DNA from: Nitrosarchaeum sp.
GTDB lineage: Archaea; Thermoproteota; Nitrososphaeria; Nitrososphaerales; Nitrosopumilaceae
NCBI GenBank assembly: GCA_018334095.1
Contig: JAGXTE010000001.1
Coordinates: 30,001-54,830, forward strand
Reading direction: 5' to 3'
Length of the DNA: 24,830 nucleotides
The position numbers were made by a program, and so were the translations under genes. A model generated the notes under the pieces. That model made no database searches. It was given only the letters and a program-made list of their open reading frames with translations, and was not told the origin of the DNA. Below are positions 5,515 to 24,830 of the stretch, one piece after another (position 1 is the stretch's first letter; every line of letters starts with the position of its first letter).

Positions 5515-5551
5515 TAGGACATGGGATTATGGAACAAACTTAAGGGTTTGG

Positions 5552-5758: not shown

Positions 5759-5816
5759 ATTATTCCATAGAGGATCTTTTAGATTAATTTTATCATTAGA
5801 TAAATTGGGTGCTAGT

Positions 5817-6674: not shown

Positions 6675-6824
6675 TAATTTTTGAACAAAATTTCGGTATT
6701 AAAAGGGAAACATGTAATGTATAGTAACAGTAATAATCTAAAACAAAATTCACGCCTAAATTACATGTTATAGAGTTCATTTTTAATGAAATTGATACAC
6801 AAATCAGAAATTAAATCAGCAAAA

Positions 6825-7370: not shown

Positions 7371-7466
7371 CCATTTATCAAAGTAAAAATCAGATATAAG
7401 TTAATCCTTGCTTATGATTTTTGATAATTACAAATTGTTTTTATGGTGTAAGGTAATACAATAGTC

Positions 7467-7871: not shown

Positions 7872-7944
7872 AACAGTTTTTCCAAAGTTTGACACTAGAA
7901 TAATCATTTAGAATATTTATTAACACAAATTCACAATATACCAC

Positions 7945-8349
7945 ATGGACAAATATGAGAAACTTCTCAACATGCTAATGGATTTTAATGACAACATCAG
8001 ATATGCAGCAGTTGCAGACAGTGATGGTCAAATAATGTGGAACAGTCAGAGAACTGGATTAAAAAATATCGTACCACCAGAAGAGACAAAACAGACTATT
8101 GGTAGAGCATTGCGCGGTTGGAAAGAAAACGAAACTGTAAAAAATTATCTTGGTTCAGGACTATATTCAATTTCATCATATGAAAAAATAAAGAGAATAT
8201 CAGTTCCATTGGATGGTGGAAAGATGTTGTTTTGTACAGTTAGCAATGAGCCACTAGGAAAATCATCAGACGGTAAGAAGGGATACGGTCACATTGCAGA
8301 GATGGGAAAGATACTATCAATAGTTGATTTTATTAAAACTCAAAAATGA
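7945..8349 (+). CDS. hypothetical protein, tandem paralog B (possibly Roadblock/LC7-like)
   Basis: 134 aa, the same length and same conserved blocks as 7467-7871 (YEKLLNMLMDFNDNIR.. / ..EMGKILSIVDFIKTQK). Confidence 0.55.
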   Translation: MDKYEKLLNMLMDFNDNIRYAAVADSDGQIMWNSQRTGLKNIVPPEETKQTIGRALRGWKENETVKNYLGSGLYSISSYEKIKRISVPLDGGKMLFCTVSNEPLGKSSDGKKGYGHIAEMGKILSIVDFIKTQK

Positions 8350-8441
8350 ACGGTCATTAACCTTCATTGTTAATATTTAAACTGGGTGCTGTTTTTTTCA
8401 AAAAAATCTAGGATTTAATCAGTGCTTCAAAGTAAATCTAG

Positions 8442-9773: not shown

Positions 9774-9848
9774 ACTTGAAATTTTATTTTCTTTTTTTAA
9801 ATGAAATGATCTTAGCAAAAAGATGTACGTCATGATATTTCTAAATTT

Positions 9849-10334
9849 TTAATCAGAATCCAACGGTTGAGTATAATCGTCTTCAGCATTTGCACCTTCA
9901 GATTTTTTTCCATTTCTTCGTGAAATTTTTTGAAAATGAGGAATACGTGGAGTAAGTGCACATACCACAATTCCAATAATTGCAAGAAAGTAATATTCAA
10001 ATCCAATAGCCATACCAATGGAGGCTGCAAACCATATGCTTGCAGCTGTTGTGAGATTGTAGATGTCTCTTCCTCCTTTTATTATCATGCCTGCCCCCAA
10101 AAATCCTATTCCACCAACAACATATGCTGCAATTCTTGTTGTGGATGCAGGATCAACCTGTGAGGACAAAAATGTGAATACCATTGAACCGCATATGACA
10201 AGAGTGTGAGTGCTTATCCCAGCTGGTTTGCCACGACTTTCTCTTTCAATGCCTATTATTATACCTGCAAGCAATGAAAAACCAAAACCAATTAAAATTC
10301 GAATCTCCGTTTCGGTGATAAAATCTTGAATCAA
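9849..10334 (-). CDS. MgtC/SapB family membrane protein
   Basis: LLAGIIIGIERESRGKPAGISTHTLVICGSMVFTFLS matches the MgtC family signature region. The start is TTG. Confidence 0.8.
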   Translation of the reverse strand: MIQDFITETEIRILIGFGFSLLAGIIIGIERESRGKPAGISTHTLVICGSMVFTFLSSQVDPASTTRIAAYVVGGIGFLGAGMIIKGGRDIYNLTTAASIWFAASIGMAIGFEYYFLAIIGIVVCALTPRIPHFQKISRRNGKKSEGANAEDDYTQPLDSD

Positions 10335-10629
10335 CTATTTCCGATTCGGATTGATTGAGCATAAAAAATTTACGGAATTTAAATTGTTACAGTGGATATT
10401 AAAAAAGTTTTAGATGTTGACATTAGTTTGCTATGGCATTTCCATTAAACAATTTTTTAATTTACATAAAGTATGTTCAAGATTAACTGAAAATACGAGA
10501 TAATTAAAGTTGATCTTGTGTATATTATAAAATATTACAGCAATCACGATATGCATCGATTAGAAACTATTTTTGATTCTGACTTTTCATAAATCCTTAA
10601 TTTCTATTAGATGTCATAAATAAATTTGA

Positions 10630-11040
10630 ATGAAAAAGATAAAGAATTTATGCAAAATAATGAATTTAAAATCATCTATGAAAGAAATAACTCCAAATGA
10701 CATACTAAAAGATCATACTCCAAATGTCAAAAACCTGGTAAAACAATTGCGTAAATTCATTTTAAATACGATCCCAGAAGTTTATGAAAAGGCATTACCC
10801 GGATGGCATGCAATTGGATTTAGACATCCAGAGGGAGGACATTTTTGTGCAATATTCCCATTCAAAGATTCGGTAAAACTTTATTTTGAATATGGAGTAC
10901 ATCTAAAAGATCCTCATAGAGTATTAGAAGGAAATACAAAACAAGTGCGTTACATTACATTTAAAAAAATTACAGATATTCAAGAGATAATTCTAAAAAG
11001 CCTTGTTCAACAATCAATACTCCATCTTAGTAGAAAATAA
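10630..11040 (+). CDS. DUF1801 (YdhG-like) domain protein
   Basis: Matches the pattern ..LVKQLRKFILNTIPEVYEKALPGWHAIGFRHPEGGHFCAIFPFKDSVKLYFEYG... The start may be an internal Met (MKEITPND). Confidence 0.55.
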   Translation: MKKIKNLCKIMNLKSSMKEITPNDILKDHTPNVKNLVKQLRKFILNTIPEVYEKALPGWHAIGFRHPEGGHFCAIFPFKDSVKLYFEYGVHLKDPHRVLEGNTKQVRYITFKKITDIQEIILKSLVQQSILHLSRK

Positions 11041-11068
11041 CACATCTTCAACACTCCAATTCATATCC

Positions 11069-11119
11069 ATCATTGTGTACCGTCTATTTTCTTGCCTAAA
11101 GGAGGGGCTTTGCCTTTTT
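11069..11119. repeat. degenerate copy of the casposon right TIR (footprint of an earlier insertion)
   Basis: atcattgtgtaccgtctattttcttgcctaaaggaggggctttgccttttt aligns with the right TIR atcatctagttacctgtctaaatccacacctaaaaagggggcattctattttt at roughly two-thirds identity. Shared blocks are atcat, acc-gtcta, cctaaa, ggggc and ttttt. It abuts the left TSD copy in the same way the real right TIR abuts the right copy. Confidence 0.6.
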
Positions 11120-11132
11120 ATTCTCTATCGAT
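11118..11132. repeat. target-site duplication, left copy (ttattctctatcgat)
   Basis: Exact 15-bp match to 22831-22845. Identity extends to 18 bp (11115-11132 = 22828-22845) because both are preceded by ttt, so the TSD/TIR boundary is ambiguous and the TSD is 13-15 bp. Confidence 0.85.
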
Positions 11133-11185
11133 AAAAATAGAATGCCCCTCTTTTGGGCGTGATTTTAGACATGTAACTAGATGAT
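11133..11185. repeat. casposon left terminal inverted repeat
   Basis: The reverse complement of aaaaatagaatgcccctcttttgggcgtgattttagacatgtaactagatgat matches 22780-22832 at 46/53 positions. Confidence 0.85.
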
Positions 11186-11244
11186 ATGAAAAAGTATGAT
11201 TTGTTGGAAATATCTTAAGTAACCTTGAATATTATCTCAAATAA

Positions 11245-11814
11245 TTGTTATCTGAAATTTATTTTAAAGAATTTCTGAAAAACCCATTTTTTTGGTGGAG
11301 TGCTTTCATAGGAATTATAACAACTTGGATTTCATTTGAACCATTTTTTAGAATTGTTGAAGCAATTTTGTTAGAACAACTGTATGTTCCAATCTTGTAT
11401 GGATGTGTAGGATTATCTCTCTATCTAATGATTTATCCAATAAAGAGCAGATTGAGAAACCTGAAACTTCAGAAAGAAACTAAAAAAGAATTTCTTGTTT
11501 ATACATTTATGATAGTAGCAATAATTACAAATACCGTATACTTTTCATCAGATCCAGCTTTTATGTTAACAAAGGCACAGAGTCAAATTGTATCTGATAA
11601 AGTAATTTTAGAAGAAGTGGGGGACCTAAAATTATGGGCAGAATATCTTGTGTTGCCTTTTCTTTATGCAATCATGTTAGCACAGAGTAGAAAACTCTTG
11701 TATGGAAATGAAGAAATGAAATTTGACAATATCGAAAGTAGCTGGAAAATATCTATTATCATTACAATACTTGTAGGCGGTGCATATCTTTTGTTTAAAT
11801 TAGTGTCTGGATGA
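11245..11814 (+). CDS. polytopic membrane protein (hypothetical), immediately upstream of cas1
   Basis: 189 aa with a TTG start and four to five hydrophobic helices. Its stop at 11812-11814 lies 1 nt before the Cas1 TTG start, so co-transcription is likely. Confidence 0.5.
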   Translation: MLSEIYFKEFLKNPFFWWSAFIGIITTWISFEPFFRIVEAILLEQLYVPILYGCVGLSLYLMIYPIKSRLRNLKLQKETKKEFLVYTFMIVAIITNTVYFSSDPAFMLTKAQSQIVSDKVILEEVGDLKLWAEYLVLPFLYAIMLAQSRKLLYGNEEMKFDNIESSWKISIIITILVGGAYLLFKLVSG

Positions 11815-11815
11815 T

Positions 11816-12886
11816 TTGACGCTTAAAGGCCATTCAAACCATTACAACATAAAATTCCTCAAAGGATACGGTCATTCCATATCTGTTAAAGATTCAAAGA
11901 TAATCCTCAAAGATTGTCATGATCCTTTCACTCCTCCAAACATTGAATCATGGTACATCAAAAGTATGCCATATGAAAAAATTGTTTTGCAAGGAAAAGG
12001 ATACATCTCGACTGATGCTTTAGCCTTACTTTCTGAGAATAATCGAAATGTCATTTTATTAGATAATCATGGAAAACCTGTAACCTATCTAAATCCGGTA
12101 ATGGAGTCTCTAACTGCAACTAGAAACAGAATTGCTCAATACGATACATTTCGTAATCCGGAGAAATGCCAATTTTTACAGAGACAAATTGTAAAGTCAA
12201 AACTAGAATCTCAAATTAAATTCCTCAAACTAACTGAGCGAGAGGAAATAAAAGAAGCCATAGAAAAACTAGAAACTCATTTGACTAATCTAGATCATTT
12301 CACTTCAATTAGTAACGAATCAAAGACATCTCATATCTACTTTAGAGCATTTGCAAAAATAATTCCAGAGAGATATGAGTTTCATTCTAGAAACCCATCG
12401 TATGTAGGATTGGCAAAAAACAAAGCTACTGATATTATCAATGCATTACTAAACTATGGTTATGCAGTACTAGGTGGAGAAATTTCCAAGTTTATCAACG
12501 GATTTGGGCTTGATGCATACTATGGATTTTATCATAAATCTCACACTGGTTTTCAGCCTCTAGTTTATGACATGATGGAACCATTTAGGTGGCTAGTCGA
12601 TTATACCGTATTTCGAATTGCAAACATCAAAGACCACAAGCAGAGAATTAGGCTTGATGAATTTACTCATACTAGAGACGGAATTATAGTAATGGAGTAT
12701 AATTTGATCAGGAAATTTCTAGAGTTACTTGAAAGAACATTCCAGTCTGAAAGAAGATATGGGTTTAGACATGGTGCAAAAACAAAAGATGGGTTGAAAA
12801 ATGTTCAAGAGATTACGATTGCAAAGATTACAGTTCAAAATTTAGTAGAGTATTGTTTAGGAAAACAAAAAGACTTTAGAATCTAA
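11816..12886 (+). CDS. cas1: Cas1-family integrase (casposase)
   Basis: Cas1 signature blocks are NESKTSHIYF (E168), INALLNYGYAVL, DAYYGFYH (H240) and LVYDMMEPFRWLVD (D252/E255). The N-terminal beta-rich region (YNIKFLKGYGHSISVKDSKIILKD) is typical of Cas1. The start is TTG. Confidence 0.9.
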   Translation: MTLKGHSNHYNIKFLKGYGHSISVKDSKIILKDCHDPFTPPNIESWYIKSMPYEKIVLQGKGYISTDALALLSENNRNVILLDNHGKPVTYLNPVMESLTATRNRIAQYDTFRNPEKCQFLQRQIVKSKLESQIKFLKLTEREEIKEAIEKLETHLTNLDHFTSISNESKTSHIYFRAFAKIIPERYEFHSRNPSYVGLAKNKATDIINALLNYGYAVLGGEISKFINGFGLDAYYGFYHKSHTGFQPLVYDMMEPFRWLVDYTVFRIANIKDHKQRIRLDEFTHTRDGIIVMEYNLIRKFLELLERTFQSERRYGFRHGAKTKDGLKNVQEITIAKITVQNLVEYCLGKQKDFRI

Positions 12887-13212
12887 GGATTTACTTCTAT
12901 CTCTTGTTGTTCCCAGTATTTCATTAAATCCCAATTGGCATCTTTAATGTTGTCCTGATATTTTGATCTTTCTTTCCAATCTTCTACTGTTGAAGCACAT
13001 TTATTTTTTAGAAATGTTTCAATAATCTCTTTACCTTCTTCAGTTGTCATTGAATCACTATAGGTTTTATCGCCCCATTTATCGTATTGTTTAGCACAAT
13101 CAAAAGTTAGAGTACTTACAATTTCATTACTATTGTTGGAGACAAATTGAATAGACAATACTGCAATCACAGAGCAAACAACTGCTATTGCTATAATCAC
13201 AACAGGTTTCAT
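12883..13212 (-). CDS. small signal-anchored/secreted protein (hypothetical)
   Basis: 109 aa with an N-terminal hydrophobic helix (MKPVVIIAIAVVCSVIAVLSI). It makes a 4-nt convergent overlap with the cas1 stop. Confidence 0.45.
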   Translation of the reverse strand: MKPVVIIAIAVVCSVIAVLSIQFVSNNSNEIVSTLTFDCAKQYDKWGDKTYSDSMTTEEGKEIIETFLKNKCASTVEDWKERSKYQDNIKDANWDLMKYWEQQEIEVNP

Positions 13213-13245
13213 TATTTTTTCAAGGTATCTTGTTCAAATAAGGAT

Positions 13246-13581
13246 TTAGTAATGTGACCTTCTTGTGTCATTAGAATCATGTGTCCAGTGATTGTGATTT
13301 CTGCCACAGTTTGTACACATGCAACAGTTACAATGTTCTTTTGCCATGTTTTTTAATCCATCCCATAGTTTTTTTTGTAAAATCATTGCCATTCCAATTA
13401 CAATTAGACCAATAACAACTGGAAGGGTTTGAGAATTTGGATATTTTAAATCATATAATGAAATGATAAACCCAATCGCTACTAATATTATTCCAACAAA
13501 CTGGATTTTTGTCTTTAATTTTATCTTTTTTTTGTATTGATTATTTTTATTATGGCTTCTTTTTCTACGCCCAAAACCCAT
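13246..13581 (-). CDS. small membrane protein with Cys/His-rich C-terminal tail (hypothetical)
   Basis: 111 aa with a basic N-terminus, two TM helices, and the tail HCNCCMCTNCGRNHNHWTH. Confidence 0.45.
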   Translation of the reverse strand: MGFGRRKRSHNKNNQYKKKIKLKTKIQFVGIILVAIGFIISLYDLKYPNSQTLPVVIGLIVIGMAMILQKKLWDGLKNMAKEHCNCCMCTNCGRNHNHWTHDSNDTRRSHY

Positions 13582-13618
13582 GATTTTGTAAATATTTTAT
13601 GAACTTAAAATTTTTTGT

Positions 13619-13933
13619 TTGAGAAATCTATTTGATATAGTAACTCATAGTAAATTCATGCCTACTTTCAGTGATTTTGATGCAAATAAAAGACATGAAG
13701 AATCTTTACAAAATGACAAAATTTTGAAAGATGGTCTAGCCGAACTACTTTCAAAAATACAAGATTTAACAGATAAATTAGATAAATATGAGACTCGAAA
13801 TTCTGAATATCTTAGAAAATTACTTTTGATGGTTTCGGAGTTATTTCAGCAAGGCAAAATCAATATCGATACATTTAATCGATTAGATGAATTTCTTCAT
13901 GACTGGCTTGATGAAAGTCTAGATTCTAAATAG
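13619..13933 (+). CDS. hypothetical helical protein
   Basis: 104-aa ORF with a TTG start (alternative Met at MPTFSDFD). No family recognised. Confidence 0.4.
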   Translation: MRNLFDIVTHSKFMPTFSDFDANKRHEESLQNDKILKDGLAELLSKIQDLTDKLDKYETRNSEYLRKLLLMVSELFQQGKINIDTFNRLDEFLHDWLDESLDSK

Positions 13934-14059
13934 AATATTAGTTGGTAATTAATAAAAATAATTATTTTAAAAATGTGATTATTTATTGGAATGAATATTT
14001 TGAATCTTATGATGTTTTAAATAATTAAAAATATAAAATAAAATTTTGAAAAAAATGAA

Positions 14060-14797
14060 TTAGTGTTTTTGTTTATATTTTTTTATTGGTTTTATAAAAT
14101 CATCAACAAACATTTCTAACATTTTTGGATCAAGTCGAAAGGATTCAGCAAATAATCGTGCAAACACCAACCCTCCAAGTAAATCAAACGAGGATGACCC
14201 TTTATCACTTAGTGAATCTAAAACTTGTTTCTTATATTTAGTAATTTGTTTAGTCATAGTAGTAAGTTTACGCTTACCGGAAACCCTACTGACCATCATC
14301 GACTGCATTTCATATATTGAAATCCAATGCAAAAACTTCATTACTTCTTCTACTTTTGTTGAATCATCTGCATCAGAAGATATTGTTTTCAAAATTCCTG
14401 TGGTGCCTATTTTGATATTTTCCATTGTTTCTATAAACTCCTCAACTTGTTCATCAGACATAGTTGTAATTTTTGAATTTATAGTGTAAATTGTGTTGTT
14501 TCTTGCAATGACGTGTTTTATCACGATTTTATTTTGGACTAATTCATCTAATATTTCTCGAAAAATTCGTTCAGAACAAACCTTTTTGTCAATCACGATT
14601 ATTCTTTCTAATTCTCCATATCGAATGCTGTCGGTATTTTTTAACACCGTATTGATTTCATCTCGTGCCTGATTTCGTATTGTACCGTATTGCATATACT
14701 GTACCGTATAATTTCTACCGTTATAACTATTGCAATAACGTAAAGTTGGCATGAAATGTGGGAAGATTGGTAGAACATCTACCAAAAAACAAACCAA
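14060..14797 (-). CDS. putative winged-helix transcription regulator
   Basis: The wHTH-like segment is INTVLKNTDSIRYGELERIIVIDKKVCSERIFREILDELVQNKIVIKHVIARNNTIYTI. The real start is probably ATG 14695 (MQYGTIRNQ...), because the longer ORF would overlap the divergent gene at 14751. Confidence 0.55.
   Translation of the reverse strand: MVCFLVDVLPIFPHFMPTLRYCNSYNGRNYTVQYMQYGTIRNQARDEINTVLKNTDSIRYGELERIIVIDKKVCSERIFREILDELVQNKIVIKHVIARNNTIYTINSKITTMSDEQVEEFIETMENIKIGTTGILKTISSDADDSTKVEEVMKFLHWISIYEMQSMMVSRVSGKRKLTTMTKQITKYKKQVLDSLSDKGSSSFDLLGGLVFARLFAESFRLDPKMLEMFVDDFIKPIKKYKQKH
14646..14725. promoter_or_regulatory. cluster of accgtat direct repeats at a divergent promoter (operator-like)
   Basis: accgtatt at 14646 and 14684, accgtata at 14703, accgttata at 14717. 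A perfect 10-mer tgtaccgtat occurs at 14681-14690 and 14700-14709, 19 bp apart. The two copies fall in different reading frames of the minus-strand ORF, so this is a DNA-level repeat. Confidence 0.45.
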
Positions 14798-14996
14798 ACT
14801 CAGTCATTCAGATGCAGTTTCAACTGATTTTGGAGTAAGGAAGATCAGCAATCAAAATTTTTCCAAAGTGATTGCACTTCCAAAAACTGCAATAGAAAAT
14901 CTTGGTGGAGATTCAACTGAAATGAAAGTTGAACTAATACAAGAAAATGGAGAAAAATTCATCAAACTTTCTCCAATTAGAGGTGATAATTTTTGA
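14751..14996 (+). CDS. AbrB/SpoVT (MazE-like) DNA-binding domain protein
   Basis: VRKISNQNFSKVIALPKTAIENLGGDSTEMKVELIQENGEKFIKLSPI resembles the SpoVT-AbrB looped-hinge-helix domain. Confidence 0.55.
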   Translation: MKCGKIGRTSTKKQTKLSHSDAVSTDFGVRKISNQNFSKVIALPKTAIENLGGDSTEMKVELIQENGEKFIKLSPIRGDNF

Positions 14997-15328
14997 GTAC
15001 AACGCAAATACCATACATTTGCTGGGGAGAATACAAATCCAAAGACCAAAACAACCCAGATAGATTAGATATCGAAGTAACTAGTTTAGAGCAGTTTGAA
15101 AGTGAACTAACAACAAATGTTCATGTCAAACAAAAGATTCAAGGAGAATGTCAAGAAAGAATTCTACCGTTAAAGTCTCATGAATCGCCAAACAATTCAT
15201 TGTTAAAACAATGGAATGATCTAGTCAAAAGAAAACGAATCATAGTCGGAAGCAAACTGGTGATTCACACATATCTTGGAATTTCAAAGCATGGTAGAAC
15301 AATTCGAAAATTCCATGTAGAGGTTTAA
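14993..15328 (+). CDS. hypothetical protein
   Basis: 111-aa ORF with a TTG start. It overlaps the previous stop by 4 nt, which suggests operon-style coupling. Confidence 0.45.
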   Translation: MSTTQIPYICWGEYKSKDQNNPDRLDIEVTSLEQFESELTTNVHVKQKIQGECQERILPLKSHESPNNSLLKQWNDLVKRKRIIVGSKLVIHTYLGISKHGRTIRKFHVEV

Positions 15329-15347
15329 TCCTCTTTTTTCTTTTGAT

Positions 15348-15656
15348 ATGAGCGATAAAGATAAACTTCTAGAACAACTTGATGCCTTAAAATTATTTCC
15401 AAACAATAAACATGTAAAGGAACTACGAAAACAAATCAAATCAAAATTAGATAAATTGAAAAATAAAAAACCTAAAGAAAAAATACAAAAACAAACCAGA
15501 GCAGGCAAGTTAAGAAGATACCACAACTATATTAGACAAATTAGAAACAACTTTCCCAATCTATCATACAACCAGATTAGAAGTCAACTATCTCAAAGAA
15601 GACAAGGAAAACAGGTATCAATTCCTGATGTGATATGGCAGAATCCATCCCCGTAA
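15348..15656 (+). CDS. small highly basic protein (hypothetical; terminal-protein or DNA-binding candidate)
   Basis: 102 aa, K/R-rich, overlapping the pPolB start by 22 nt. Confidence 0.5.
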   Translation: MSDKDKLLEQLDALKLFPNNKHVKELRKQIKSKLDKLKNKKPKEKIQKQTRAGKLRRYHNYIRQIRNNFPNLSYNQIRSQLSQRRQGKQVSIPDVIWQNPSP

Positions 15657-17419
15657 CTGATTACAAGAATCTGGCCAAATTACGCACAAAAAGGCCACAA
15701 AACAGAGATTCTGCACAATCAAAGATTCGCAAAATCAATGCACTTGATACAGAAACCTACAATGGGGATATCTTTCTAATAGCAGACTCTGATGGTCTAT
15801 ATCTTGATGATATAACTTCAGATAATGTAATTCACTTTTTATTTTCAAAAAAATATCAAAATGCTTGGAATTTTTTTTATAATTTGCAATATGACGCTGA
15901 AGTGATACTAAAGTTATTGGGAAATGAACTATTTCGATACAAACAAACTGGAAAATTAGAATTCCTATACAAACAATTCAAAATAGAGTACATTCCATCA
16001 AAATTACTAAGAATAAAAAAAGGCCACCACAGCGTATTATTTTTTGATATTGCTCAGTTTTACACAAAATCATTAGTTGATGCATATGAGCAAAACATTG
16101 GAGAATTACCCAAGACATATTTGGAGATAAAAGAAAAACGCTCTCACTTTACAAAGCGATTTTACAATCACAACAAGAAAAAAATTAGAAGTTACTGTAT
16201 TACTGATTGTATTCTTACAAAGAAACTATCTGAGCACTGGATTGCACTGTTTAATCAAGCATTTTCGTTTTATCCTGCAAAATGGTCTTCATCAGGATAC
16301 TTGGCAGAAAAAGTACTAATCAACAATGGAATATTTTTTCCAAAATTTGATTCTATACCATACCAAATTCAGGATTTAGCGTTTAGATCATACTTTGGGG
16401 GAAGATTTGAAATGATAAAGCGGGGATTTATTGGCAAAGCGTACCTTTATGATATTAATTCAGCATATCCACATGCCATATCTCAACTCCCTGATCTAAA
16501 TGATGGTAGATGGATTAAACGAAAATCCATTTATGATAAAGCAAAACTTGGTTTCTTTAAGATTCTAGCAAACATCCCAGATGATAAAATCATCCCACCA
16601 TTTGCCTTTAGAGCAAATCATAACATTGTATTTCCATCTGGAAAATTCATTACATATTGCACATTGCCTGAACTTTTAGCCTGCAATGAGCCTAGTTTTT
16701 ACAAAATTTTGGAAGGATACCAGTTTGTGCCAAATTCTAATGTCTTACCATACAAAGATTTCATAGAAAAATTATATCAAAAACGTCTAAAACTAAAACA
16801 AGAAAACAATCCATTACAGCAACCAATCAAAATTATCTTAAATTCCATTTATGGCAAAACAGGACAAAAAATAAACAGAATAATTGGAAATTTATTTAAT
16901 CCCGTAATATTTGCAAGCATCACAGGACATACTAGAGCACAACTATACCAATTCATTATAAAAAACAATCTAGAAAAAAACACTATAGCATTTGCCACAG
17001 ATTCTATCTGCATAACAAAAAAACTTGACATCAACTCTACTAAACTTGGAGAGTTTTCATTTGATGGAAAAGCAAATGATGTTTTTTATTTACAAAATGG
17101 ATTTTATAGATTCAATGGAATGTGGAAGCAACGTGGATTTGGTAAACTAGGATCTAGAGAAATAGAACATCTAGATACTAAAGAAAAAAATGGCAAGCTA
17201 ATTGCAAAGATGCAAGTTTTACGAAACCCTAGATTACGAAGCTCAATAATTCAAAACAATATTAAAAATATTGGAAATATCTCTACAATTAGTAGAGAGA
17301 TTAATCTTAATGCTGATAGGAAAAGACTGTGGCTTGATACAATTACTAACATAAATCAAAAATCAGCTAATGAGTCAGTACCGATTTCTTTGAATCATTT
17401 TACTAAAGAGCAAATATGA
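15635..17419 (+). CDS. polB: protein-primed family B DNA polymerase (pPolB)
   Basis: Motifs are ExoI ALDTETY, ExoII NLQYDAEVI, ExoIII YCITDCILT, Pol A YLYDINSAYPHA, Pol B KIILNSIYGKTGQ and Pol C FATDSICI. The short 594-aa size is typical of protein-primed PolBs. Confidence 0.9.
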   Translation: MAESIPVTDYKNLAKLRTKRPQNRDSAQSKIRKINALDTETYNGDIFLIADSDGLYLDDITSDNVIHFLFSKKYQNAWNFFYNLQYDAEVILKLLGNELFRYKQTGKLEFLYKQFKIEYIPSKLLRIKKGHHSVLFFDIAQFYTKSLVDAYEQNIGELPKTYLEIKEKRSHFTKRFYNHNKKKIRSYCITDCILTKKLSEHWIALFNQAFSFYPAKWSSSGYLAEKVLINNGIFFPKFDSIPYQIQDLAFRSYFGGRFEMIKRGFIGKAYLYDINSAYPHAISQLPDLNDGRWIKRKSIYDKAKLGFFKILANIPDDKIIPPFAFRANHNIVFPSGKFITYCTLPELLACNEPSFYKILEGYQFVPNSNVLPYKDFIEKLYQKRLKLKQENNPLQQPIKIILNSIYGKTGQKINRIIGNLFNPVIFASITGHTRAQLYQFIIKNNLEKNTIAFATDSICITKKLDINSTKLGEFSFDGKANDVFYLQNGFYRFNGMWKQRGFGKLGSREIEHLDTKEKNGKLIAKMQVLRNPRLRSSIIQNNIKNIGNISTISREINLNADRKRLWLDTITNINQKSANESVPISLNHFTKEQI

Positions 17420-17634
17420 AAATAACGAAAATCATAAGATAATTATTTATCTGCACGAAATATGCGAGATTAAGCTTTTGAAGCAAATTACGCATGAATT
17501 TTGATGCTTTTATGGTATTTTCATGTACGAAAATAAAACAGTTATTCACGAGAGAGTTACGAAGAAGAGCTAATCTCGCAACCTGCGAATGAAACTTTCA
17601 TGAGTGAGAAATACGAAGAAGAGCTTTTGAAGTA
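17420..17634. other. 215-bp repeat-rich non-coding spacer between convergent genes
   Basis: The 14-mer tacgaagaagagct occurs at 17558-17571 and 17612-17625. The 11-mer agcttttgaag occurs at 17473-17483 and 17622-17632. An imperfect inverted repeat pairs tgcgagattaagct (17463-17476) with agctaatctcgca (17568-17580). acgaaa(a/t) motifs recur throughout. Confidence 0.5.
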
Positions 17635-18489
17635 TTATTGTAATGAAAAACCACACTTATTGCAAAATGAAGAATCTGTTGGATTAACATTTTTACATTG
17701 TGTGCAGATGGTTGTAAATTTATGCCCACATTTATTACAAAACTTTGCATCAATTGGATTAAAATTATTGCATGATGTACACTTGATTTCTTGCTCGCGT
17801 TTCTGTTTTTCATTATCTTGTTTTCTTAGTTTATCACTCCATTCTTTTTGGGTTTTGATTTGATATTTTACCAGTTTAGCCAATCCGTTCGGATCTGGTA
17901 CAGCATAAAACGTAAAAACAATTTCTCCTTCTGCCATAATATTTACATCGCCAAACGTTTGACTTTCACCAGTACTAAAACTACCTGAACTTCCTACAAA
18001 TGTTCCACTAGCACCAATTCCTGCAAATGTTCCCTCACGTTGAGATTCAGATATTCTTTTTTGATTATTGACTATAACATCAATGTTTTCAGATAATGCA
18101 TACATTGACATCTGATGTTCTTTTAAATCATAAAAATAACATCTGTATTCTGTTAAAGCGTCATACGCTCTTAGTGTTTTATTGACTAACCCTTCTTCTT
18201 TTTTGCGATACCATAAAACTTGTTCATTTTTACATTTTATTGGAAGAAATGGATTTACCCAAAAAGCTTCAATTCTTTTTGTGTCATCATTTTGAAATAA
18301 TACTGGATACTCGGATGTGATATTTTTTTCTTCTAATAATTGTCGACTTTTTTCGATAGATAGAGCCATGTCTCTCTTTGATTTTTCTGGAACCTCTGAA
18401 GCTGGAAGTAAAAATATATCTTCAAGTTCAAATTTTTCTTCATTTTTTTTAACTTCTATCTGCTTTTCTTTTTTACCAAATAATCCCAT
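17635..18489 (-). CDS. double-zinc-ribbon protein with uncharacterised N-terminal domain
   Basis: The C-terminus CTSCNNFNPIDAKFCNKCGHKFTTICTQCKNVNPTDSSFCNKCG is two tandem CxxC..CxxC ribbons. The N-terminal ~220 aa are unassigned. Confidence 0.65.
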   Translation of the reverse strand: MGLFGKKEKQIEVKKNEEKFELEDIFLLPASEVPEKSKRDMALSIEKSRQLLEEKNITSEYPVLFQNDDTKRIEAFWVNPFLPIKCKNEQVLWYRKKEEGLVNKTLRAYDALTEYRCYFYDLKEHQMSMYALSENIDVIVNNQKRISESQREGTFAGIGASGTFVGSSGSFSTGESQTFGDVNIMAEGEIVFTFYAVPDPNGLAKLVKYQIKTQKEWSDKLRKQDNEKQKREQEIKCTSCNNFNPIDAKFCNKCGHKFTTICTQCKNVNPTDSSFCNKCGFSLQ

Positions 18490-18607
18490 AAATTTGAGAA
18501 CATATACAAATTCTTAAGGATTTATTCATTTGTTATATTCATACTTCATTCGTACAAATTTTATGAATTTACGATAAACTAAAATTCATAATTTTTTATG
18601 AAACCAT

Positions 18608-19420
18608 ATGGGTTGGAAAAAACTTTTAGGTGATATTAAAGAAAAATCAGAAAAATTTGTTGAAGAAAAAAAGAAAGAGCGCAATTTAAGACGAATAGAA
18701 CAACAGGAACAAGCAGAACAAAGAGCAGAGTATGAGAATACTGTTAACAAATTACTGGATAAATTTGAAATTCCAGATCTTGATGAATTTTTAATGAAAT
18801 ATCTTAACAATAAACCAGAACCTAAAATAGAAAAAGACCCAGATATAGGAAAAATAACTAAGATACGACCAGGTAGACGAGAATATCTTGATTTTGTTTG
18901 GAGTAATTTTAATGAAAAAGATATCACATATGATCAACTAAAGAATTTTGCTTTAAAAAAGAAAATTATTACTCCAAGTTTCTTTGGAAACGAATCAGAT
19001 GACACTTATGAAAAAAGTGACTTTGAATCAATTATTAATGCAATTCGAGTTGGATTTGAACCTGAAAAAATTACAGATGAAGAACATCTTGAAGCACAAT
19101 TAATGATATTTTTGAAAGCAAAATTTCCAGACAGAAAAATAAGAAGGCAAGTTACAATTCAAGGAAATGACCGACTCGATATTTTAATTGATGATAAATA
19201 TGCCTTTGAACTTAAAGTCCCAAAACAAAGAACAGATTTAAGAAATCTAGGTGCTCAATTAGAAGAATACAAAGAAATGTATCCAAACGTATGTGGATTG
19301 ATCTTTGAAGATATCAATGAAGGAAATCTTTCACAAGATATCATGGATTATGTTGATAAATACAAAAAAAATTATGGGATATCTACAATAGTTTTAGGCG
19401 GTACCAAACGATATTCATAA
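18608..19420 (+). CDS. PD-(D/E)xK (RecB-like) nuclease-fold protein with charged N-terminal region
   Basis: Ordered motifs are EEHLEAQL (E), RLDILID (D), FELKV (ExK) and AQLEEY (QxxxY), the RecB-family/restriction-endonuclease-like pattern. There is no Cas4-type Cys cluster. Confidence 0.55.
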   Translation: MGWKKLLGDIKEKSEKFVEEKKKERNLRRIEQQEQAEQRAEYENTVNKLLDKFEIPDLDEFLMKYLNNKPEPKIEKDPDIGKITKIRPGRREYLDFVWSNFNEKDITYDQLKNFALKKKIITPSFFGNESDDTYEKSDFESIINAIRVGFEPEKITDEEHLEAQLMIFLKAKFPDRKIRRQVTIQGNDRLDILIDDKYAFELKVPKQRTDLRNLGAQLEEYKEMYPNVCGLIFEDINEGNLSQDIMDYVDKYKKNYGISTIVLGGTKRYS

Positions 19421-19485
19421 TAATACAACATCAGTTATTCTTTGAGAATTATTCTTGGTAAATTATAAGGATTTATGAAATTAAG

Positions 19486-19513
19486 ATTGTGTTTTTTTAA
19501 TCAAAAACACAAT
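19486..19513. promoter_or_regulatory. perfect 11-bp stem hairpin/palindrome (terminator or operator)
   Basis: attgtgttttt (19486-19496), a ttaatc loop, then aaaaacacaat (19503-19513), followed by acttttt. It lies 66 nt after the stop of 18608-19420 and 30 nt before the ATG at 19544. Confidence 0.5.
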
Positions 19514-19543
19514 ACTTTTTCAATAGAATCCCAATAATAGAGC

Positions 19544-20248
19544 ATGGCCATAATCTATGGCATTTCAGAGGCTACAAAAGAATTCCTAAAGAAATTACCA
19601 AAGGAAATCAAATCCCTTGAAGATATTGAAAAAATACATCAAAAATTATCCCAAGAGTATGATGAACTAGAAAACAAGGGATTAATTGCTAAATTTAGTC
19701 GTTGGAATAAAAAAAGACAAATAAAAAAAATTGAAGAAAATACTGACAGTAAAGAACACCGAGGTGCACGAGGTGAAGTTCTAGCATTAGAGAAACTATC
19801 AGAACTACCTGATGATTATCACATATTCTGTGGAGTAAACAAGGTACTCAAAGATTATGTCACCTATCGAAGAAAACGAAATCTAAAGTCAGCCCAGATG
19901 GACTTTGTCGTAGTATCAAAAAGGGGTGTATCAGTAATTGAGGTAAAAAACTGGAGTTCACATTATTACAATAATTACTATGGATTGCCACCACATGAAC
20001 AAGTAGACAGAGCAGGTCGTGTCTTGTGGATATCGCTAAAGTCTTCTTGGTTTGCACCAAAAGATCCACCAATTTCTAGTGTATTACTAGCAATTCAAGG
20101 AAATATCAACTATGATGATAATTATGGATATGTCATTGTAAAGAATCTAAACAATATCAATTACTATTTGCAAAATAGAGAAATACAGTTTTCTGAAAAA
20201 GAAGTATCTAGATTAATTGGTAGAGTCAAAGGAGACATAACAACATGA
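19544..20248 (+). CDS. NERD (nuclease-related domain) protein
   Basis: GARGEVLALEKLSELPDDYHIF...AQMDFVVVSKRGVSVIEVKNWS matches the NERD pattern G..GE...L...D.vvv...gv.viEvKn. Confidence 0.7.
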   Translation: MAIIYGISEATKEFLKKLPKEIKSLEDIEKIHQKLSQEYDELENKGLIAKFSRWNKKRQIKKIEENTDSKEHRGARGEVLALEKLSELPDDYHIFCGVNKVLKDYVTYRRKRNLKSAQMDFVVVSKRGVSVIEVKNWSSHYYNNYYGLPPHEQVDRAGRVLWISLKSSWFAPKDPPISSVLLAIQGNINYDDNYGYVIVKNLNNINYYLQNREIQFSEKEVSRLIGRVKGDITT

Positions 20249-20349
20249 TTGTTTTATAGTACATATAATTATTAACAAAGATATTTTGCATGTTAGATTA
20301 AATCATGTAAAAAATTAGAATTTTCAAACATATCAAATAATCAGTAATT

Positions 20350-21309
20350 TTGGTTAGAAAAATCATGTCTTCATTTCTTCTAAAAAAGAAATCTAAAAAA
20401 TCATTTTTAGAAGGAATTCAAATTTTAGAATATTCTACAAGAGAAAATTATCGGTCAGCACTTAAACAATTTGAAACATTTTGTAATTTTTATTATAATA
20501 AAACTATTCAATATATAATAGATGAAATAAAATCATTAAAACAAGAACAAAAAGATGAAGCGTTTCTTGGAATGTTGCAAGAATTTGTTAATTGGATGAA
20601 AAAAACAACATTGGCAAATACTACAATTCAAAAATACTTTCAAATTATTATTTATTATTTTAGCTATCATGGGATTAGAGCACATCCTATAGATCTACGA
20701 CAAAATATCAAACTCCCAAAAAAGTTTAAAGAAAAACTTCATTCATTAACCAAAGAAGAAATAATTCAATTATTCAAATTCACTCCTCAATCAAGACAAA
20801 TGTTGTATCTAGTATTGATTGGATCTGGTATGAGAATTAGAGAAACTGTAGCATTACGAAAAAAAGATTTTGATTTAGACTATCCAAAAAGAATCAAAAT
20901 AGAAATACCGGCTCAATTTACAAAGACAAAAACTGCACATACAACATATGTTTCAAAAGAGGCCGAATCTCTCCTAAAACCACACTTAGAATCCATAAAA
21001 AATAACGATTTAGTATTTGCAACAAATTCTATTCCATACCATGCATCTATGACTGAAATAGGGGCTTTTGCCAGATATAGAGAAAAAGCAGGATTGACTC
21101 GAATTTATGAATCAACTAAACGACATCATATATCACTTCATTCTTTTAGATCGTATTTTTTTATTCGTGCTAGACGAATACATGATACAGATATTGCTCA
21201 TGCAATGATAGGTCATTCTACGTATCTTGATATGTATGACAGAAAAGAAGACGATGAAAAATTAGACTTGTTTCTAGAAGTTGAAAATGAACTAAAAATT
21301 TGCGGATAA
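20350..21309 (+). CDS. tyrosine recombinase / phage-type integrase
   Basis: Catalytic pattern is GMRIRETVALRKKDF (R), SLHSFRSYF (HxxR) and IGHSTYLDMYDR (H...Y), with an N-terminal SAM-like core-binding region. The start is TTG 20350 or ATG 20365. Confidence 0.8.
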   Translation: MVRKIMSSFLLKKKSKKSFLEGIQILEYSTRENYRSALKQFETFCNFYYNKTIQYIIDEIKSLKQEQKDEAFLGMLQEFVNWMKKTTLANTTIQKYFQIIIYYFSYHGIRAHPIDLRQNIKLPKKFKEKLHSLTKEEIIQLFKFTPQSRQMLYLVLIGSGMRIRETVALRKKDFDLDYPKRIKIEIPAQFTKTKTAHTTYVSKEAESLLKPHLESIKNNDLVFATNSIPYHASMTEIGAFARYREKAGLTRIYESTKRHHISLHSFRSYFFIRARRIHDTDIAHAMIGHSTYLDMYDRKEDDEKLDLFLEVENELKICG

Positions 21310-21359
21310 GAACAATTGGTAGGATATTGTTTTTATTCATGTTTACTATGTGAGCCATA

Positions 21360-22778
21360 ATGTCAATGCTATTGTTTGGGGCAGGTGCGTCTAGACCGTT
21401 TGGGATTCCAACAATGCAAGAAATGGTAGATGATTTTGAAAGGGAATTATCTCAATCCACAATTCATTTTACATTTTACCAAGATATCAAAAAATCATTA
21501 GTAGAGCAATATGGACCAAATAAAACAGATATTGAATCAATTCTATCTGTACTCCAAGGGATTGGAGAAAATGTCACTCCAAGTGATTTAGGTCATTTCA
21601 CATATTATTATATTTCAAAAAATTGTTCAAAAAAGAGTTTTTCTGAAGAGGATATAACTAAAGCAAAAGAAATTACAATTAAACTAAAAGATTACATAAA
21701 AACAAAATGCCAGGTAAATTCAAAAGATCTTACAAGTATTTATTCAAAAACATATTTGCCATTATTCCAAAATTTAGCAGGAACAAAATTTCTCTATCAT
21801 GGAAATTTTGAACTTGCCACTGAATGGAAAAGTTTTACAACAAATTATGATGACATTTTTGAAAGATTTTGGAGTAAATTTCAGGAACCCAATAGTCATT
21901 TTGAGAGACAGGGAACTTCAAATAACTATATTTTCAATTCAAATATAACTTTAGACAATCAATCATTATCGAAACTTCATGGTTCACTTGATTGGACAAG
22001 AATTAAGGATACAGATCAAATATTTCGTTCTGCACAAACTGGATTTAATACTCATGAAACAGAAGGAGATGTCATGTTATATCCAATTCAACAAAAAGAT
22101 CTATACCTTCATCCATGGTTTACGTTATTTCAAGACTTCAAAAAAAGTTTAGAAAAATTCAATCAATGGTATATAATTGGTTATGCGTTTAACGATGAAT
22201 TTATTTTAAATGTTATAAAAGAAGGTTTAACAAAAAAATCAAAAACAATGATTGTAATTAATCCTAATGCTGAAGTAATCAGAAATAAATTTCCAGATGT
22301 GCTTAGAAAACAAATTATTGCTTTACCCTATAAATTTGGAGATCAGTATTTTGTCAATAATTTTATTGAATTTCAAAGGAAAGTCAGAAACATAGAATTA
22401 TCTATCCAAACAAACGCTCAATGTTTTAAAATTGAATTCCCATTTAAAGTACATACAGAATATGTGCATAAAATTGAACATGGGTCTTGCGCTAATGCCA
22501 CTGTATTGCCTAACAACCATCAAGTTTTTGAATACAATACAGAAAAAGGTTCAGAAATTTCAATAACATTAAATGCAGATTTTGACTTTGATTATACACG
22601 TATTGAAAATTTGGATTTTACATTTATTTCAAATTCTAAAACTCCTGTTAAATGTACTATAAAAAACCAAAAACGAATTATTGACACTTGTACTCTAAAT
22701 GATTGGACACGTTTAAAAACTGATGAAAATTTTTTGATTAGAGTTAGAAGTGTTAGCTCACGTAATTTTCTTATCTGA
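21360..22778 (+). CDS. SIR2-like (SIR2_2 family) putative NADase with uncharacterised ~130-aa C-terminal domain
   Basis: Motifs are LLFGAGASRPFGIPTMQEMV, FTTNYDDIFE, LSKLHGSLDW and YIIGYAFNDEFI, as in defence-associated SIR2 domains. The stop lies 1 nt before the right TIR. Confidence 0.7.
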   Translation: MSMLLFGAGASRPFGIPTMQEMVDDFERELSQSTIHFTFYQDIKKSLVEQYGPNKTDIESILSVLQGIGENVTPSDLGHFTYYYISKNCSKKSFSEEDITKAKEITIKLKDYIKTKCQVNSKDLTSIYSKTYLPLFQNLAGTKFLYHGNFELATEWKSFTTNYDDIFERFWSKFQEPNSHFERQGTSNNYIFNSNITLDNQSLSKLHGSLDWTRIKDTDQIFRSAQTGFNTHETEGDVMLYPIQQKDLYLHPWFTLFQDFKKSLEKFNQWYIIGYAFNDEFILNVIKEGLTKKSKTMIVINPNAEVIRNKFPDVLRKQIIALPYKFGDQYFVNNFIEFQRKVRNIELSIQTNAQCFKIEFPFKVHTEYVHKIEHGSCANATVLPNNHQVFEYNTEKGSEISITLNADFDFDYTRIENLDFTFISNSKTPVKCTIKNQKRIIDTCTLNDWTRLKTDENFLIRVRSVSSRNFLI

Positions 22779-22779
22779 A

Positions 22780-22832
22780 ATCATCTAGTTACCTGTCTAA
22801 ATCCACACCTAAAAAGGGGGCATTCTATTTTT
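22780..22832. repeat. casposon right terminal inverted repeat
   Basis: atcatctagttacctgtctaaatccacacctaaaaagggggcattctattttt is the inverted partner of 11133-11185 (46/53). Its last 2 nt are shared with the TSD as drawn. Confidence 0.85.
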
Positions 22833-22845
22833 ATTCTCTATCGAT
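22831..22845. repeat. target-site duplication, right copy = last 4 codons plus stop of EF-2
   Basis: The reverse complement of ttattctctatcgat is ATC GAT AGA GAA TAA, which reads I D R E stop and matches the EF-2 C-terminus ...EEYIDRE. Confidence 0.85.
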
Positions 22846-24830
22846 GTATTCTTCGATTCCAGGAGGTGTTGGTGCCAATCCTTTTCTCTTTCTGATTTCT
22901 GCAATTGCAGTTGCTGCAATAGATTTTGGCAGTTCAGTCCATGCCTTAAAGGATGTATTCCATGTTGCACGTCCTGCTGTTTGTCCTCTCATTGCTTCAG
23001 ATAGTGTAAATGTTTCAGATGCTGGAATTTCACCGACAATAATACTTGCAGCTCCTTTTTGTTGCATGTCAAGCACTTTGCCACGTTTGCCAGAAAGAAC
23101 GGTAGCTACGTTTCCTACCAAGTCAGTTGGAACTCGGACCTCAATTGCAAGCATTGGCTCCAAGATTGTAGTTCCTGCAGTTAGTAACGCTCCCATGCAT
23201 GCACGTCTAGATGCCGGTCCCAGTTGTGAAAGACCACGGTGTGCAGTATCCTCGTGAGGTACAAAGTGAGTAAAGATGAATTTGCAGTCCCTCATCTGCT
23301 CTTTGCAGAGTGGGCCTTCTTTCATTACTTCCTCAAATCCAGAGTTGATAGAGTCAGTTGACTCTTGAATAAATTGAACACCTTTTGTTCCGTTGATCAT
23401 TACGTTTCCACGTGGGTCTAGTTTCATGATTCTCTTAATTGTATCAGTATCCCATCCAGCGCCCTTTAGAAGGTCAGCTACAACTTTTTTGTCTTTCATG
23501 TCGCTGATTTCACCAGTTCTTAGCATGTGTGCGATTGCTGGCTCCAATGGCTCTACTTTCATGAAAATCTTGTTGTGTCTGTTTGGAGATTTTGACATGA
23601 TTGGCTCACATGTTCCTTTGACGGTTTCTCTGTAATTGATAAGAGGTTCAGATGTTATGATTTCTACTTTGGCGTCTTGAATTCTATGTGTTGCAACATC
23701 AAGGTGCAACACACCCATTCCAGCTACTAGTGTTTCGCCAGATTCTTCATCGATTTTTACTACAAGGTTAGGATCTTCAATTGTTAGTTGTTTGAGGACC
23801 TCGACAAGTTTTGGCAAGTCTTTTGGATGTTTTGGTTCTATTGCAACTTGCACGACAGGTTCTGATACATATTTGACTCCTTCAAACATTGGAATTCCTT
23901 TGACAGATGAAATTGTATTTCCTGCTCTAGCTTCAGTTAATCCTAATAATGCTGGAATGTTTCCTGCACCAAGCTCACCGACTTGTTCTCTTTGGTTTCC
24001 CATGAAAAAGTTTACAGATTGAACTCTTCCCTCTCTTTTTGCATCGATAATGTTTATTGTTTGTCCGTCCTTTATTGTTCCAGAGAATAATCTACCAATT
24101 GCAACAGGCCCTGCTGCAGGATCTAAGACCATGTTGACGACCATCATGATTGTTGGTCCGTCATCACTGCATGCCAAGAGTGCTTTACCAATATCAGATT
24201 CAAGGTCACCTTTCCAAATTTGAGGAATTCTGTACTTTTGAGCAACGTGTGGTGGTGGAACGTGTTTTACTACCATTCCCAACACTGCATCAGCCAAAGG
24301 AGCGCGTGCTACCAAATCTTCTACTTTTTCATTTTTGTAAGCATCAATGACATCTTTGAATGTAATGCCTTTTTCTTTCATGATATCTACGTTAAATGCC
24401 CATTTGTCTTTGGCAGAACCAAATGTGACGCTGGCATCTTGGATAGATACTTTCCATTTGTCTTTGTATTCAGGTTCAGCATAAGTGTCAACTAGTTGGT
24501 TAAAGCTAGACACTACACCTGCAAGTGTCTCTTGCATTTTTTCTGGTGTCAGACGTAATTCTTTGATTAGTCTGTCTACTTTGTTGATAAATAAAACTGG
24601 TCTTACTCTTTCTTCAAGGGCCATTCTTGTTACAGTCTCTGTCTGGGTCATGATTCCCTCGACTGCATCACATACTACAGTTGCGCCATCGATTGCCCTA
24701 AGACTTCGAATTACCCTTCCACTGAAATCTACGTGTCCGGGAGTATCAATCATGTTAATGACGAATTCTTTGTCTTTTTGTGTAAAGTGTAAAGTTACAT
24801 TTGCTTGGTAAATTGTAATTCCTCTTTCTT
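22831..24830 (-). CDS. fusA: translation elongation factor 2 (aEF-2), 5' end beyond window
   Basis: The track ORF starts at an internal Met, but the frame stays open upstream to the window edge (..ERGITIYQANVTLHFTQKDKEFVINMIDTPGHVDF..). It carries the G-domain DTPGH motif and the diphthamide-loop-like HEDTAHRGLSQ. Length and domain order are those of EF-2. Confidence 0.95.
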   Translation of the reverse strand, partial: ERGITIYQANVTLHFTQKDKEFVINMIDTPGHVDFSGRVIRSLRAIDGATVVCDAVEGIMTQTETVTRMALEERVRPVLFINKVDRLIKELRLTPEKMQETLAGVVSSFNQLVDTYAEPEYKDKWKVSIQDASVTFGSAKDKWAFNVDIMKEKGITFKDVIDAYKNEKVEDLVARAPLADAVLGMVVKHVPPPHVAQKYRIPQIWKGDLESDIGKALLACSDDGPTIMMVVNMVLDPAAGPVAIGRLFSGTIKDGQTINIIDAKREGRVQSVNFFMGNQREQVGELGAGNIPALLGLTEARAGNTISSVKGIPMFEGVKYVSEPVVQVAIEPKHPKDLPKLVEVLKQLTIEDPNLVVKIDEESGETLVAGMGVLHLDVATHRIQDAKVEIITSEPLINYRETVKGTCEPIMSKSPNRHNKIFMKVEPLEPAIAHMLRTGEISDMKDKKVVADLLKGAGWDTDTIKRIMKLDPRGNVMINGTKGVQFIQESTDSINSGFEEVMKEGPLCKEQMRDCKFIFTHFVPHEDTAHRGLSQLGPASRRACMGALLTAGTTILEPMLAIEVRVPTDLVGNVATVLSGKRGKVLDMQQKGAASIIVGEIPASETFTLSEAMRGQTAGRATWNTSFKAWTELPKSIAATAIAEIRKRKGLAPTPPGIEEYIDRE

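Follow-up and report, generated by a model that had tools for sequence, protein, structure and literature searches.

The adaptation machinery of CRISPR is presumed to descend from casposons, of which, to our knowledge, few intact copies have been described in detail. The family-1 casposon of Candidatus Nitrosopumilus koreensis AR1, NitAR1-C1, was reportedly described by Krupovic in 2014. Biochemical work on family-1 casposases has been done with the AR1 enzyme (Wang 2021, PMC8464041). Among thaumarchaeal casposons the 3' end of the ef-2 gene is the commonest target (PMC6563490), and tandem integration at this site has been published for NitNF5-C1 and NitNF5-C2 of Ca. Nitrosopumilus adriaticus NF5 (PMC6563490). 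Three or four conserved genes that are uncharacterised, directly upstream of the gene for a family B DNA polymerase primed by protein (pPolB), are a further trait of family 1 (PMC6563490). Here we analyzed a stretch of 24,830 nucleotides from Nitrosarchaeum sp. (contig JAGXTE010000001.1, positions 30,001 to 54,830), termed the window throughout, and we conclude with high confidence that positions 11133-22832 of it are an intact family-1 casposon of an uncultured Nitrosarchaeum. What was observed directly, and supports this conclusion, is the anatomy of the element, the families of its proteins, its conserved residues for catalysis and DNA contact, the identity of its target and the fact that the closest genomes lack it. 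For comparison, 80 Nitrosopumilaceae loci containing the EF-2 C-terminus and up to 10 kb downstream of it were fetched (L003-L082); individual loci are named by number only where required. The features that define the element and its target are the following, with terminal inverted repeat abbreviated as TIR, target site duplication as TSD and expectation value as E.

11120..11132, strand not applicable: distal copy of the probable TSD, an exact repeat
11133..11185, plus strand: Cas1-side TIR, tip AAAAATAGAATGCCCCT, TIR profile E 8.6e-07
11816..12886, plus strand: casposase, a 356-aa Cas1 of family 1 that starts at a TTG, identified by Pfam, NCBIfam, a structure match and the alignment with the AR1 enzyme
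14751..15656, plus strand: three small genes (81, 111 and 102 aa) directly upstream of polB, with homologs at the same position in L004, L045, L084, L089 and L094
15635..17419, plus strand: protein-primed-type family B DNA polymerase, 594 aa, identified by PF03175 and its motifs
22780..22832, minus strand: ef-2-proximal TIR, inward tip AAAAATAGAATGCCCCC, TIR profile E 5.9e-08
22833..22845, strand not applicable: ef-2-side copy of the probable TSD, reading ATCGATAGAGAAT in the ef-2 orientation, an exact repeat within an apparent repeat of 15-18 bp
22831..24753, minus strand: target gene ef-2 (aEF-2), frame intact after the insertion, with a 5' end extending past the listed open reading frame (ORF)

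The product of the gene at 11816-12886 matched the Cas_Cas1 family (PF01867, E 3.5e-49) and, above cutoff, the generic NCBIfam cas1 model (TIGR00287, 1.9e-46); none of the NCBIfam models for CRISPR-subtype Cas1 proteins reached its cutoff. The closest solved structure was that of the Methanosarcina mazei casposase (6OPM), and an end-to-end alignment with the casposase of Ca. Nitrosopumilus koreensis AR1 gave 67% identity. In this alignment, and by reading of the motifs, the catalytic residues E168, H240 and D252 are kept, as are the residues relevant for integration by the AR1 enzyme: D110, R113, K117, K201 (K184 in AR1), Y214 (Y197) and Y251 (Y234). The window casposase lacks a C-terminal helix-turn-helix (HTH): with its 356 aa it is collinear with the HTH-less AR1 enzyme, the M. 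mazei enzyme having 431 aa. Public gene calls for the same Cas1 (ENA, JGI) begin at an internal ATG and yield a truncated product of 306 aa; judged from the homologs, the TTG at 11816 is the true start. As databases label relatives of this protein 'CRISPR-associated endonuclease Cas1', the gene could be taken for the leftover of a degraded CRISPR-Cas adaptation module that lies near polB by coincidence. This explanation is effectively refuted. No Cas2 domain was found in window ORFs of at least 60 aa, and the 24.8-kb window contained no CRISPR-like tandem array, tRNA, Rfam family or other cas gene; the protein is closely related to a validated casposase and its top PDB match is a casposase structure; and the ensemble of Cas1, polB, TIRs and TSD recurs in many loci (e.g. 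L004, L045).

For the polymerase, DNA_pol_B_2 (PF03175) was the best Pfam family (E 4.8e-23), and the motifs of a pPolB are all present: Exo I (D38xE), Exo II, Exo III, A (DINSAYP), B (KIILNSIYG) and C (FATDS). The single aspartate of the xTDS motif C is common to all related casposon polymerases and therefore does not indicate a defect. Identity to other thaumarchaeal casposon pPolBs ranges from 46 to 72%, and from these features the enzyme is assigned to the protein-primed (viral/organellar) type of PolB. An earlier note on this DNA, made from its letters without database searches, had described a Cas1 homolog with the catalytic E/H/D residues and a protein-primed family B polymerase, with neither a CRISPR array nor cas2 in the 24.8 kb, and had recognised the architecture of a casposon, assigning pPolB-encoding thaumarchaeal casposons to the known family 1. 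Profile and structure searches, the array, Rfam and Cas2-domain scans and the literature (PMC6563490, PMC8464041) agree with it on each of these points; Cas1, pPolB, pre-polB genes, TIRs, TSD, a thaumarchaeal host and the ef-2 target were all found. The host was assigned from the flanking EF-2, which is 95-99% identical to that of Nitrosarchaeum/Nitrosopumilaceae metagenome-assembled genomes (MAGs) and places it in the Thaumarchaeota, and an identical copy of one cargo protein is encoded by a Nitrosarchaeum MAG at NCBI.

The ends of the element were defined by repeat finding in the window. Two inverted arms of 55 nt (11131-11185 and 22780-22834) are 87% complementary, the runner-up pair in the region being 37 nt long and 73% complementary. 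The terminal 25 nt of the TIR occur at just two sites in the window, the two arms, where shuffled sequences give an expectation of 0; the TIRs bound the segment as had been claimed. A 15-mer, TTATTCTCTATCGAT, is present at 11118-11132 and again, exactly, at 22831-22845, with no further exact copy in the window. This 15-bp repeat had been named as the TSD in the earlier note; its exactness and uniqueness stand, and the duplication itself was probably shorter. With AAAAA at the start of the TIR tip and of the old flank alike, as many as 18 bp can be counted into the apparent direct repeat (22828-22845 on the ef-2 side). The true TSD is probably the 13 bp ATCGATAGAGAAT, at 11120-11132 and 22833-22845, a placement based on the biochemistry of the AR1 enzyme and on the repeats of two relatives. 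In AR1, an apparent 22-bp repeat holds a true TSD of 13 bp, ATTGATAAAGAGT, in which A1, A11 and T13 are essential (PMC8464041); the window 13-mer retains all three. In the two relatives, inserted at sites other than ef-2, the repeats are unambiguous and 13 to 15 bp long (L085, ATTGATAGTCAAT; L100, AGAGATTATCAGT). The element is thus placed at 11133-22832, an extent of 11,700 bp.

The earlier note had not remarked on the position of the duplicated bases, which form the 3' end of ef-2 with its stop codon. Read in the ef-2 orientation, the junction is ...GAA GAA TAC / ATC GAT AGA GAA T / AA AAATAGAATGCCCCC. The duplication covers the final four codons of ef-2 and the T that begins its stop codon. 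As the TIR tip supplies the remaining AA of the stop, ef-2 is unharmed and retains a normal C-terminus (...IDRE*) identical to those of its relatives. The same arrangement bears on a different origin for the segment: a plasmid or provirus that encodes a protein-primed polymerase and was integrated by a tyrosine recombinase, with the 15-18-bp repeats as attL and attR. A tyrosine recombinase is indeed encoded at 20350-21309, and integrated elements of Thaumarchaeota often have short att sites in gene 3' ends (PMC6563490). The repeats, however, adjoin 55-nt TIRs, as is typical of casposons, and the 13-mer matches the experimentally defined target of a casposase (PMC8464041). L004 has the same TIR-TSD arrangement without a homolog of the window recombinase (no scan for other recombinases was made there), the element encodes no viral hallmark proteins, and NitNF5-C1 has been described with a XerC-like recombinase among its cargo (PMC6563490). 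An insertion by the recombinase is, in our view, highly improbable, and the segment is treated as a casposon in what follows.

Combined with the literature on the AR1 and family-2 casposases, from which we infer the integration chemistry and the 13-bp stagger, this anatomy suggests how the element may have been inserted and maintained. The HTH-less casposase would recognise the 3' end of ef-2 and attach the TIR 3' ends at offset positions, roughly 13 bp from each other, at the leader-TSD junction. Gap repair would then duplicate ATCGATAGAGAAT, and the TIR tip (AA...) would restore the stop codon of ef-2. The PolB of the element would copy it from the TIR ends, probably aided by one of the small proteins from the three conserved genes upstream; such protein-primed self-replication, like a present-day activity of this copy, is presumed.

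In the comparison with related genomes, which the earlier note had asked for, the closest ones by EF-2 (L003, 99%; L006 and L007, 97%) do not carry the window element, and their similarity to the window ends at the stop codon. Sister casposons that are complete, having the two TIRs and 15-bp repeats that match exactly, lie at ef-2 in Nitrosarchaeum sp. LAS73 (L004, 5.5 kb) and in the MAG ECS25A1 (L045, 8.8 kb). The window element itself was found again in JGI 3300001798 (possibly the source of the window, its contig likewise ending at this ef-2), ENA ERZ27300258 and Logan SRR6213120. A precise empty-site allele joining the two flanks of the window was not found by protein look-ups, by a junction pattern or in the related loci. 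Exact-protein look-ups with the DUF1801 protein of the left flank returned filled contigs only, the SIR2 protein returned its source contig only, and the junction pattern GGGGCTTTGCCTTTTTATTCTCTATCGAT had no match in JGI metagenome contigs, where it missed the filled site too. This result is explained by the left flank, which is itself variable and starts with the relic end of an older casposon; for the same reason the empty site predicted by the earlier note would not be untouched chromosome. Presence and absence are therefore shown at the ef-2 boundary only.

The relic abuts the distal TSD, outside the intact element.

11041..11119, minus strand: relic end of an older casposon, a AAAAAGGCAAAGCCCC-type TIR with a subterminal stretch

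Positions 11081-11119 match the casposon TIR profile (E 0.006) with the TSD in the same register as for the live TIR, and the extension from 11081 down to 11041, the stop codon of the DUF1801 gene, was made by eye from the sequence alone. The TIR type of the relic, AAAAAGGCAAAGCCCC, resembles the TIRs of L073, L085 and L100 and differs from that of the intact element. As neither a partner TIR nor a third TSD-like 13-mer was found in 1-11117 with the TIR profile and a degenerate pattern, the older element has been reduced to its end. The order casposon, second TSD, further TIR is also found in L004/L084 and in L045. In LAS73 (BQXB01000003.1) the tandem reads, from ef-2, a 5.5-kb casposon 1, a TSD, a 10.9-kb casposon 2, a TSD and another TIR. 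On the same contig a third LAS73 Cas1, 89% identical to that of the window, lies downstream of a ribosomal-protein operon with a PolB fragment only (L083).

A TIR-like sequence directly follows the ef-2 stop codon in about 27 of the 80 genomes, a count that is partly circular since the profile was built from the same sequences. In most of these genomes neither Cas1 nor PolB is encoded within 10 kb, and fragments lie behind the TIR in L008, L013, L018, L049, L055 and L073. The pattern fits a graveyard at the ef-2 3' end, produced by repeated integration followed by decay. Two further elements at the ef-2 site have casposon-type TIRs and neither Cas1 nor PolB (L077, 11170-14159, 3.0 kb; L081, 11170-12321, 1.1 kb), the former with a TSD carrying one mismatch; they are possibly non-autonomous derivatives. 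In the Nitrosarchaeum MAG L023, at about 11100-11330, the ef-2 match stops 11 residues short and is followed almost at once by a Cas1 N-terminus with no TIR, which looks like a deletion that fused the end of ef-2 to a decayed casposon.

The modules of the window element do not share a single closest relative. For Cas1, identity to the proteins of L083-L087 is 86-89%; the TIRs of these loci, as far as seen, belong to the AAAAAGG type, and DNA similarity to them begins and ends at the borders of the cas1 gene. The window TIRs, in contrast, are of the AAAAATAGAATG type. The closest pPolBs are those of L094 (72%, its Cas1 62%) and L004 (68%, its Cas1 57%), both with TIRs of the TAGAA type, whereas L084, the LAS73 casposon 2, has a Cas1 87% identical and a pPolB just 46% identical to those of the window. 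The rank orders of Cas1 and pPolB are thus nearly reversed, which indicates an exchange of the cas1 module between lineages. Such an exchange is in keeping with the wide range of TIR sequences that the AR1 casposase is reported to accept (PMC8464041). We tentatively suggest, as a possibility somewhat short of even, that the element is a recent chimera, in which a AAAAATAGAATG-type backbone with its matching pPolB acquired a casposase cassette from a lineage with AAAAAGGCA-type ends, the same type as the adjoining relic. Mobility of such a chimera would mean that family-1 casposases are promiscuous towards TIRs in vivo. The ef-2 tandem arrays would then serve as workshops of recombination, in which integrase, polymerase and defence cargo (SIR2, NERD, and the protein domain named TIR) are reshuffled, and would also give rise to polymerase-less mini-casposons such as L085 and L100. 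The first of these (L085, 9346-12466) is a TIR-bounded element of 3.1 kb at a non-ef-2 site with a 13-bp TSD, Cas1, two unknown ORFs and no polymerase; the second (L100, 9655-12166) spans 2.5 kb, with a 13-bp TSD, Cas1, NERD, identical TIRs of 46 nt and no polymerase. In reviews, a polymerase is described as invariably present in casposons (PMC6452270).

Several observations weigh against an intact casposon in the window. The base preceding the TSD is C, where AR1 has T, and a T at this position is important for leader-side integration by the AR1 casposase (PMC8464041); the TSD has ATAG in place of the ATAA 'ruler' of AR1. The two TIRs mismatch at 7 of 55 positions, those of L100, clearly a recent relative, being identical, and the cas1 clade otherwise travels with a different TIR type. 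No relative of the pPolB with a solved structure was detectable by sequence, and no terminal protein was identified for the element. Finally, the searches for signs that this copy is mobile gave neither an empty allele nor a second copy. The earlier note had judged the copy complete and potentially active; its ORFs and ends are intact, as claimed, and for activity the present data allow inference only.

Some of these observations would also suit a casposon that is family 1 by descent and now a dead, fixed copy, kept as a vehicle for cargo useful to the host (the SIR2 and nuclease genes). The element is identical in three assemblies with no empty allele, its TIRs are only 87% matched, its casposase gene comes from a lineage with different TIRs, and the ef-2 site holds decayed casposon remains in many genomes. 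Yet the core ORFs are all full length and have their catalytic motifs, the TSD copy that is not under selection still matches the selected one exactly, and the AR1 enzyme accepts TIRs of widely differing sequence (PMC8464041). We therefore regard a dead copy as unlikely, although far less so than the recombinase-borne origin considered above, and retain the reading as an intact family-1 casposon.

The remaining genes of the element are listed below.

11245..11814, plus strand: predicted membrane protein of 189 aa directly upstream of cas1, with no Pfam family and no homolog in related casposons
12883..14797, both strands: four element-specific ORFs of 109 aa (minus), 111 aa (minus), 104 aa (plus) and 211-245 aa (minus), with no homologs in other casposons
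17635..18489, minus strand: cargo protein of 284 aa with a C-terminal double zinc ribbon (PF12773, E 1.2e-08)
18608..19420, plus strand: cargo protein of 270 aa, probably a PD-(D/E)xK-type nuclease (PHROG nuclease, E 5e-05)
19544..20248, plus strand: NERD nuclease-related cargo protein (PF08378, E 1.4e-11), with homologs in L012 and in the mini-element L100
20350..21309, plus strand: XerA/XerC-like tyrosine recombinase, cargo (PF00589, E 1.3e-10; NF040815, E 1.4e-16, below cutoff)
21360..22778, plus strand: SIR2-like protein of 472 aa, with the SIR2 domain at about residues 1-305 and a C-terminal 165 aa beyond the domain (PF13289, E 2.2e-07)

Five cargo proteins make up the ef-2-proximal 5 kb of the element. 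Some homologs of the 270-aa protein carry PF18742, which we take to be the DpnII/MboI restriction-endonuclease family. The best match of the SIR2-like protein in the defence library was an Argonaute-associated SIR2 (PADLOC Aga_SIR2, E 7.3e-25); it is one of about 137 database proteins that form a thaumarchaeal family, and the corresponding slot of LAS73 casposon 2 is occupied by a TIR-domain protein. NERD and a XerC-like recombinase are already known in NitNF5-C1, and other nucleases in other family-1 elements (PMC6563490). The probable role of this cargo is defence, or competition among mobile elements. The possibility that the recombinase, SIR2 and NERD genes form an integrative element nested in the casposon was considered and found unsupported, as no flanking direct repeats stand out; a viral nature ('caspovirus') was likewise dismissed, no capsid or other viral hallmark being matched by the element proteins.

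The casposon lies within a larger variable region. The conserved chromosomal neighbour of ef-2 corresponds to window positions ~950-4075 and lies within ~80-220 bp of the ef-2 stop in several genomes; window 4076-22830 is therefore a variable island of ~18.7 kb, of which the casposon is the ef-2-proximal 11.7 kb. The rest of the island (4076-11040) encodes SnoaL-like, cupin, Na+/H+ exchanger, MgtC and DUF1801 proteins and several unknowns, and the closest relative, L003, shares just 4581-5800 of it (95.7%). Two adjacent paralogous ORFs of 134 aa each (7467-7871 and 7945-8349, 43% identical) have homologs upstream of ef-2 in several Nitrosopumilus loci.

Compared with known systems, the window element is a well-preserved further example of the already well-described family-1 casposons at their canonical target, and the current understanding of the class is unchanged by it: ef-2 targeting, tandem integration and a cargo of NERD and XerC-like proteins have all been published for family 1 (PMC6563490). 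Of secondary interest are its relic neighbour, a cas1 module apparently swapped in from another lineage, and a cargo of SIR2 type. From the family-2 casposons (AciBoo-C1, M. mazei), with which it shares a Cas1-family integrase (6OPM), TIRs, a TSD (~14 bp in family 2) and site-specific integration, the window element is set apart by their RNA/DNA-primed-type PolB, the C-terminal HTH of their casposase, their mainly tRNA-gene targets and their euryarchaeal hosts. With the tandem NitNF5-C1/C2 (PMC6563490) it has in common, going by their description, the ef-2 target, the repeated use of the site and the NERD nuclease and XerC-like recombinase cargo, and NitNF5-C1 is large too; the second element of the window is, however, a relic TIR only, and a SIR2-like cargo is not listed for NitNF5. 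Of the complete Cas1 proteins, that of LAS73 casposon 2 (BQXB01000003, L084) is the closest (87%), and this element also agrees in gene order, in orientation to ef-2 and in being followed by a further TIR, but its pPolB reaches just 46% identity, its TIRs belong to the AAAAAGGCAG type and it carries a TIR-domain cargo instead of SIR2, NERD and recombinase. LAS73 casposon 1 (L004) has a similar TIR type and a pPolB that is 68% identical; neither single LAS73 element matches the window element over all modules. These surroundings depict ef-2 as a reused hotspot with modular exchange between co-resident casposons.

The comparison is closest with NitAR1-C1. Both elements have an HTH-less Cas1 (67% identical, functional residues kept), a pPolB, TIRs and an integration at the 3' end of ef-2; their TSDs are homologous (ATTGATAAAGAGT in AR1, ATCGATAGAGAAT in the window; A1, A11 and T13 kept), and in both the apparent repeat is over-long owing to A-runs at the TIR tip and in the flank. 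They differ in host, that of the window being Nitrosarchaeum, in cargo, and in a Cas1 that is just 67% identical; the window leader ends in TAC where that of AR1 ends in TTT, and the window TSD has ATAG where AR1 has the ATAA ruler. The window copy thus offers a clean Nitrosarchaeum example with defined ends, and its casposase is suited to in vitro work as a second family-1 enzyme, since its natural leader and TSD (C at -1, ATAG) differ from those of AR1.

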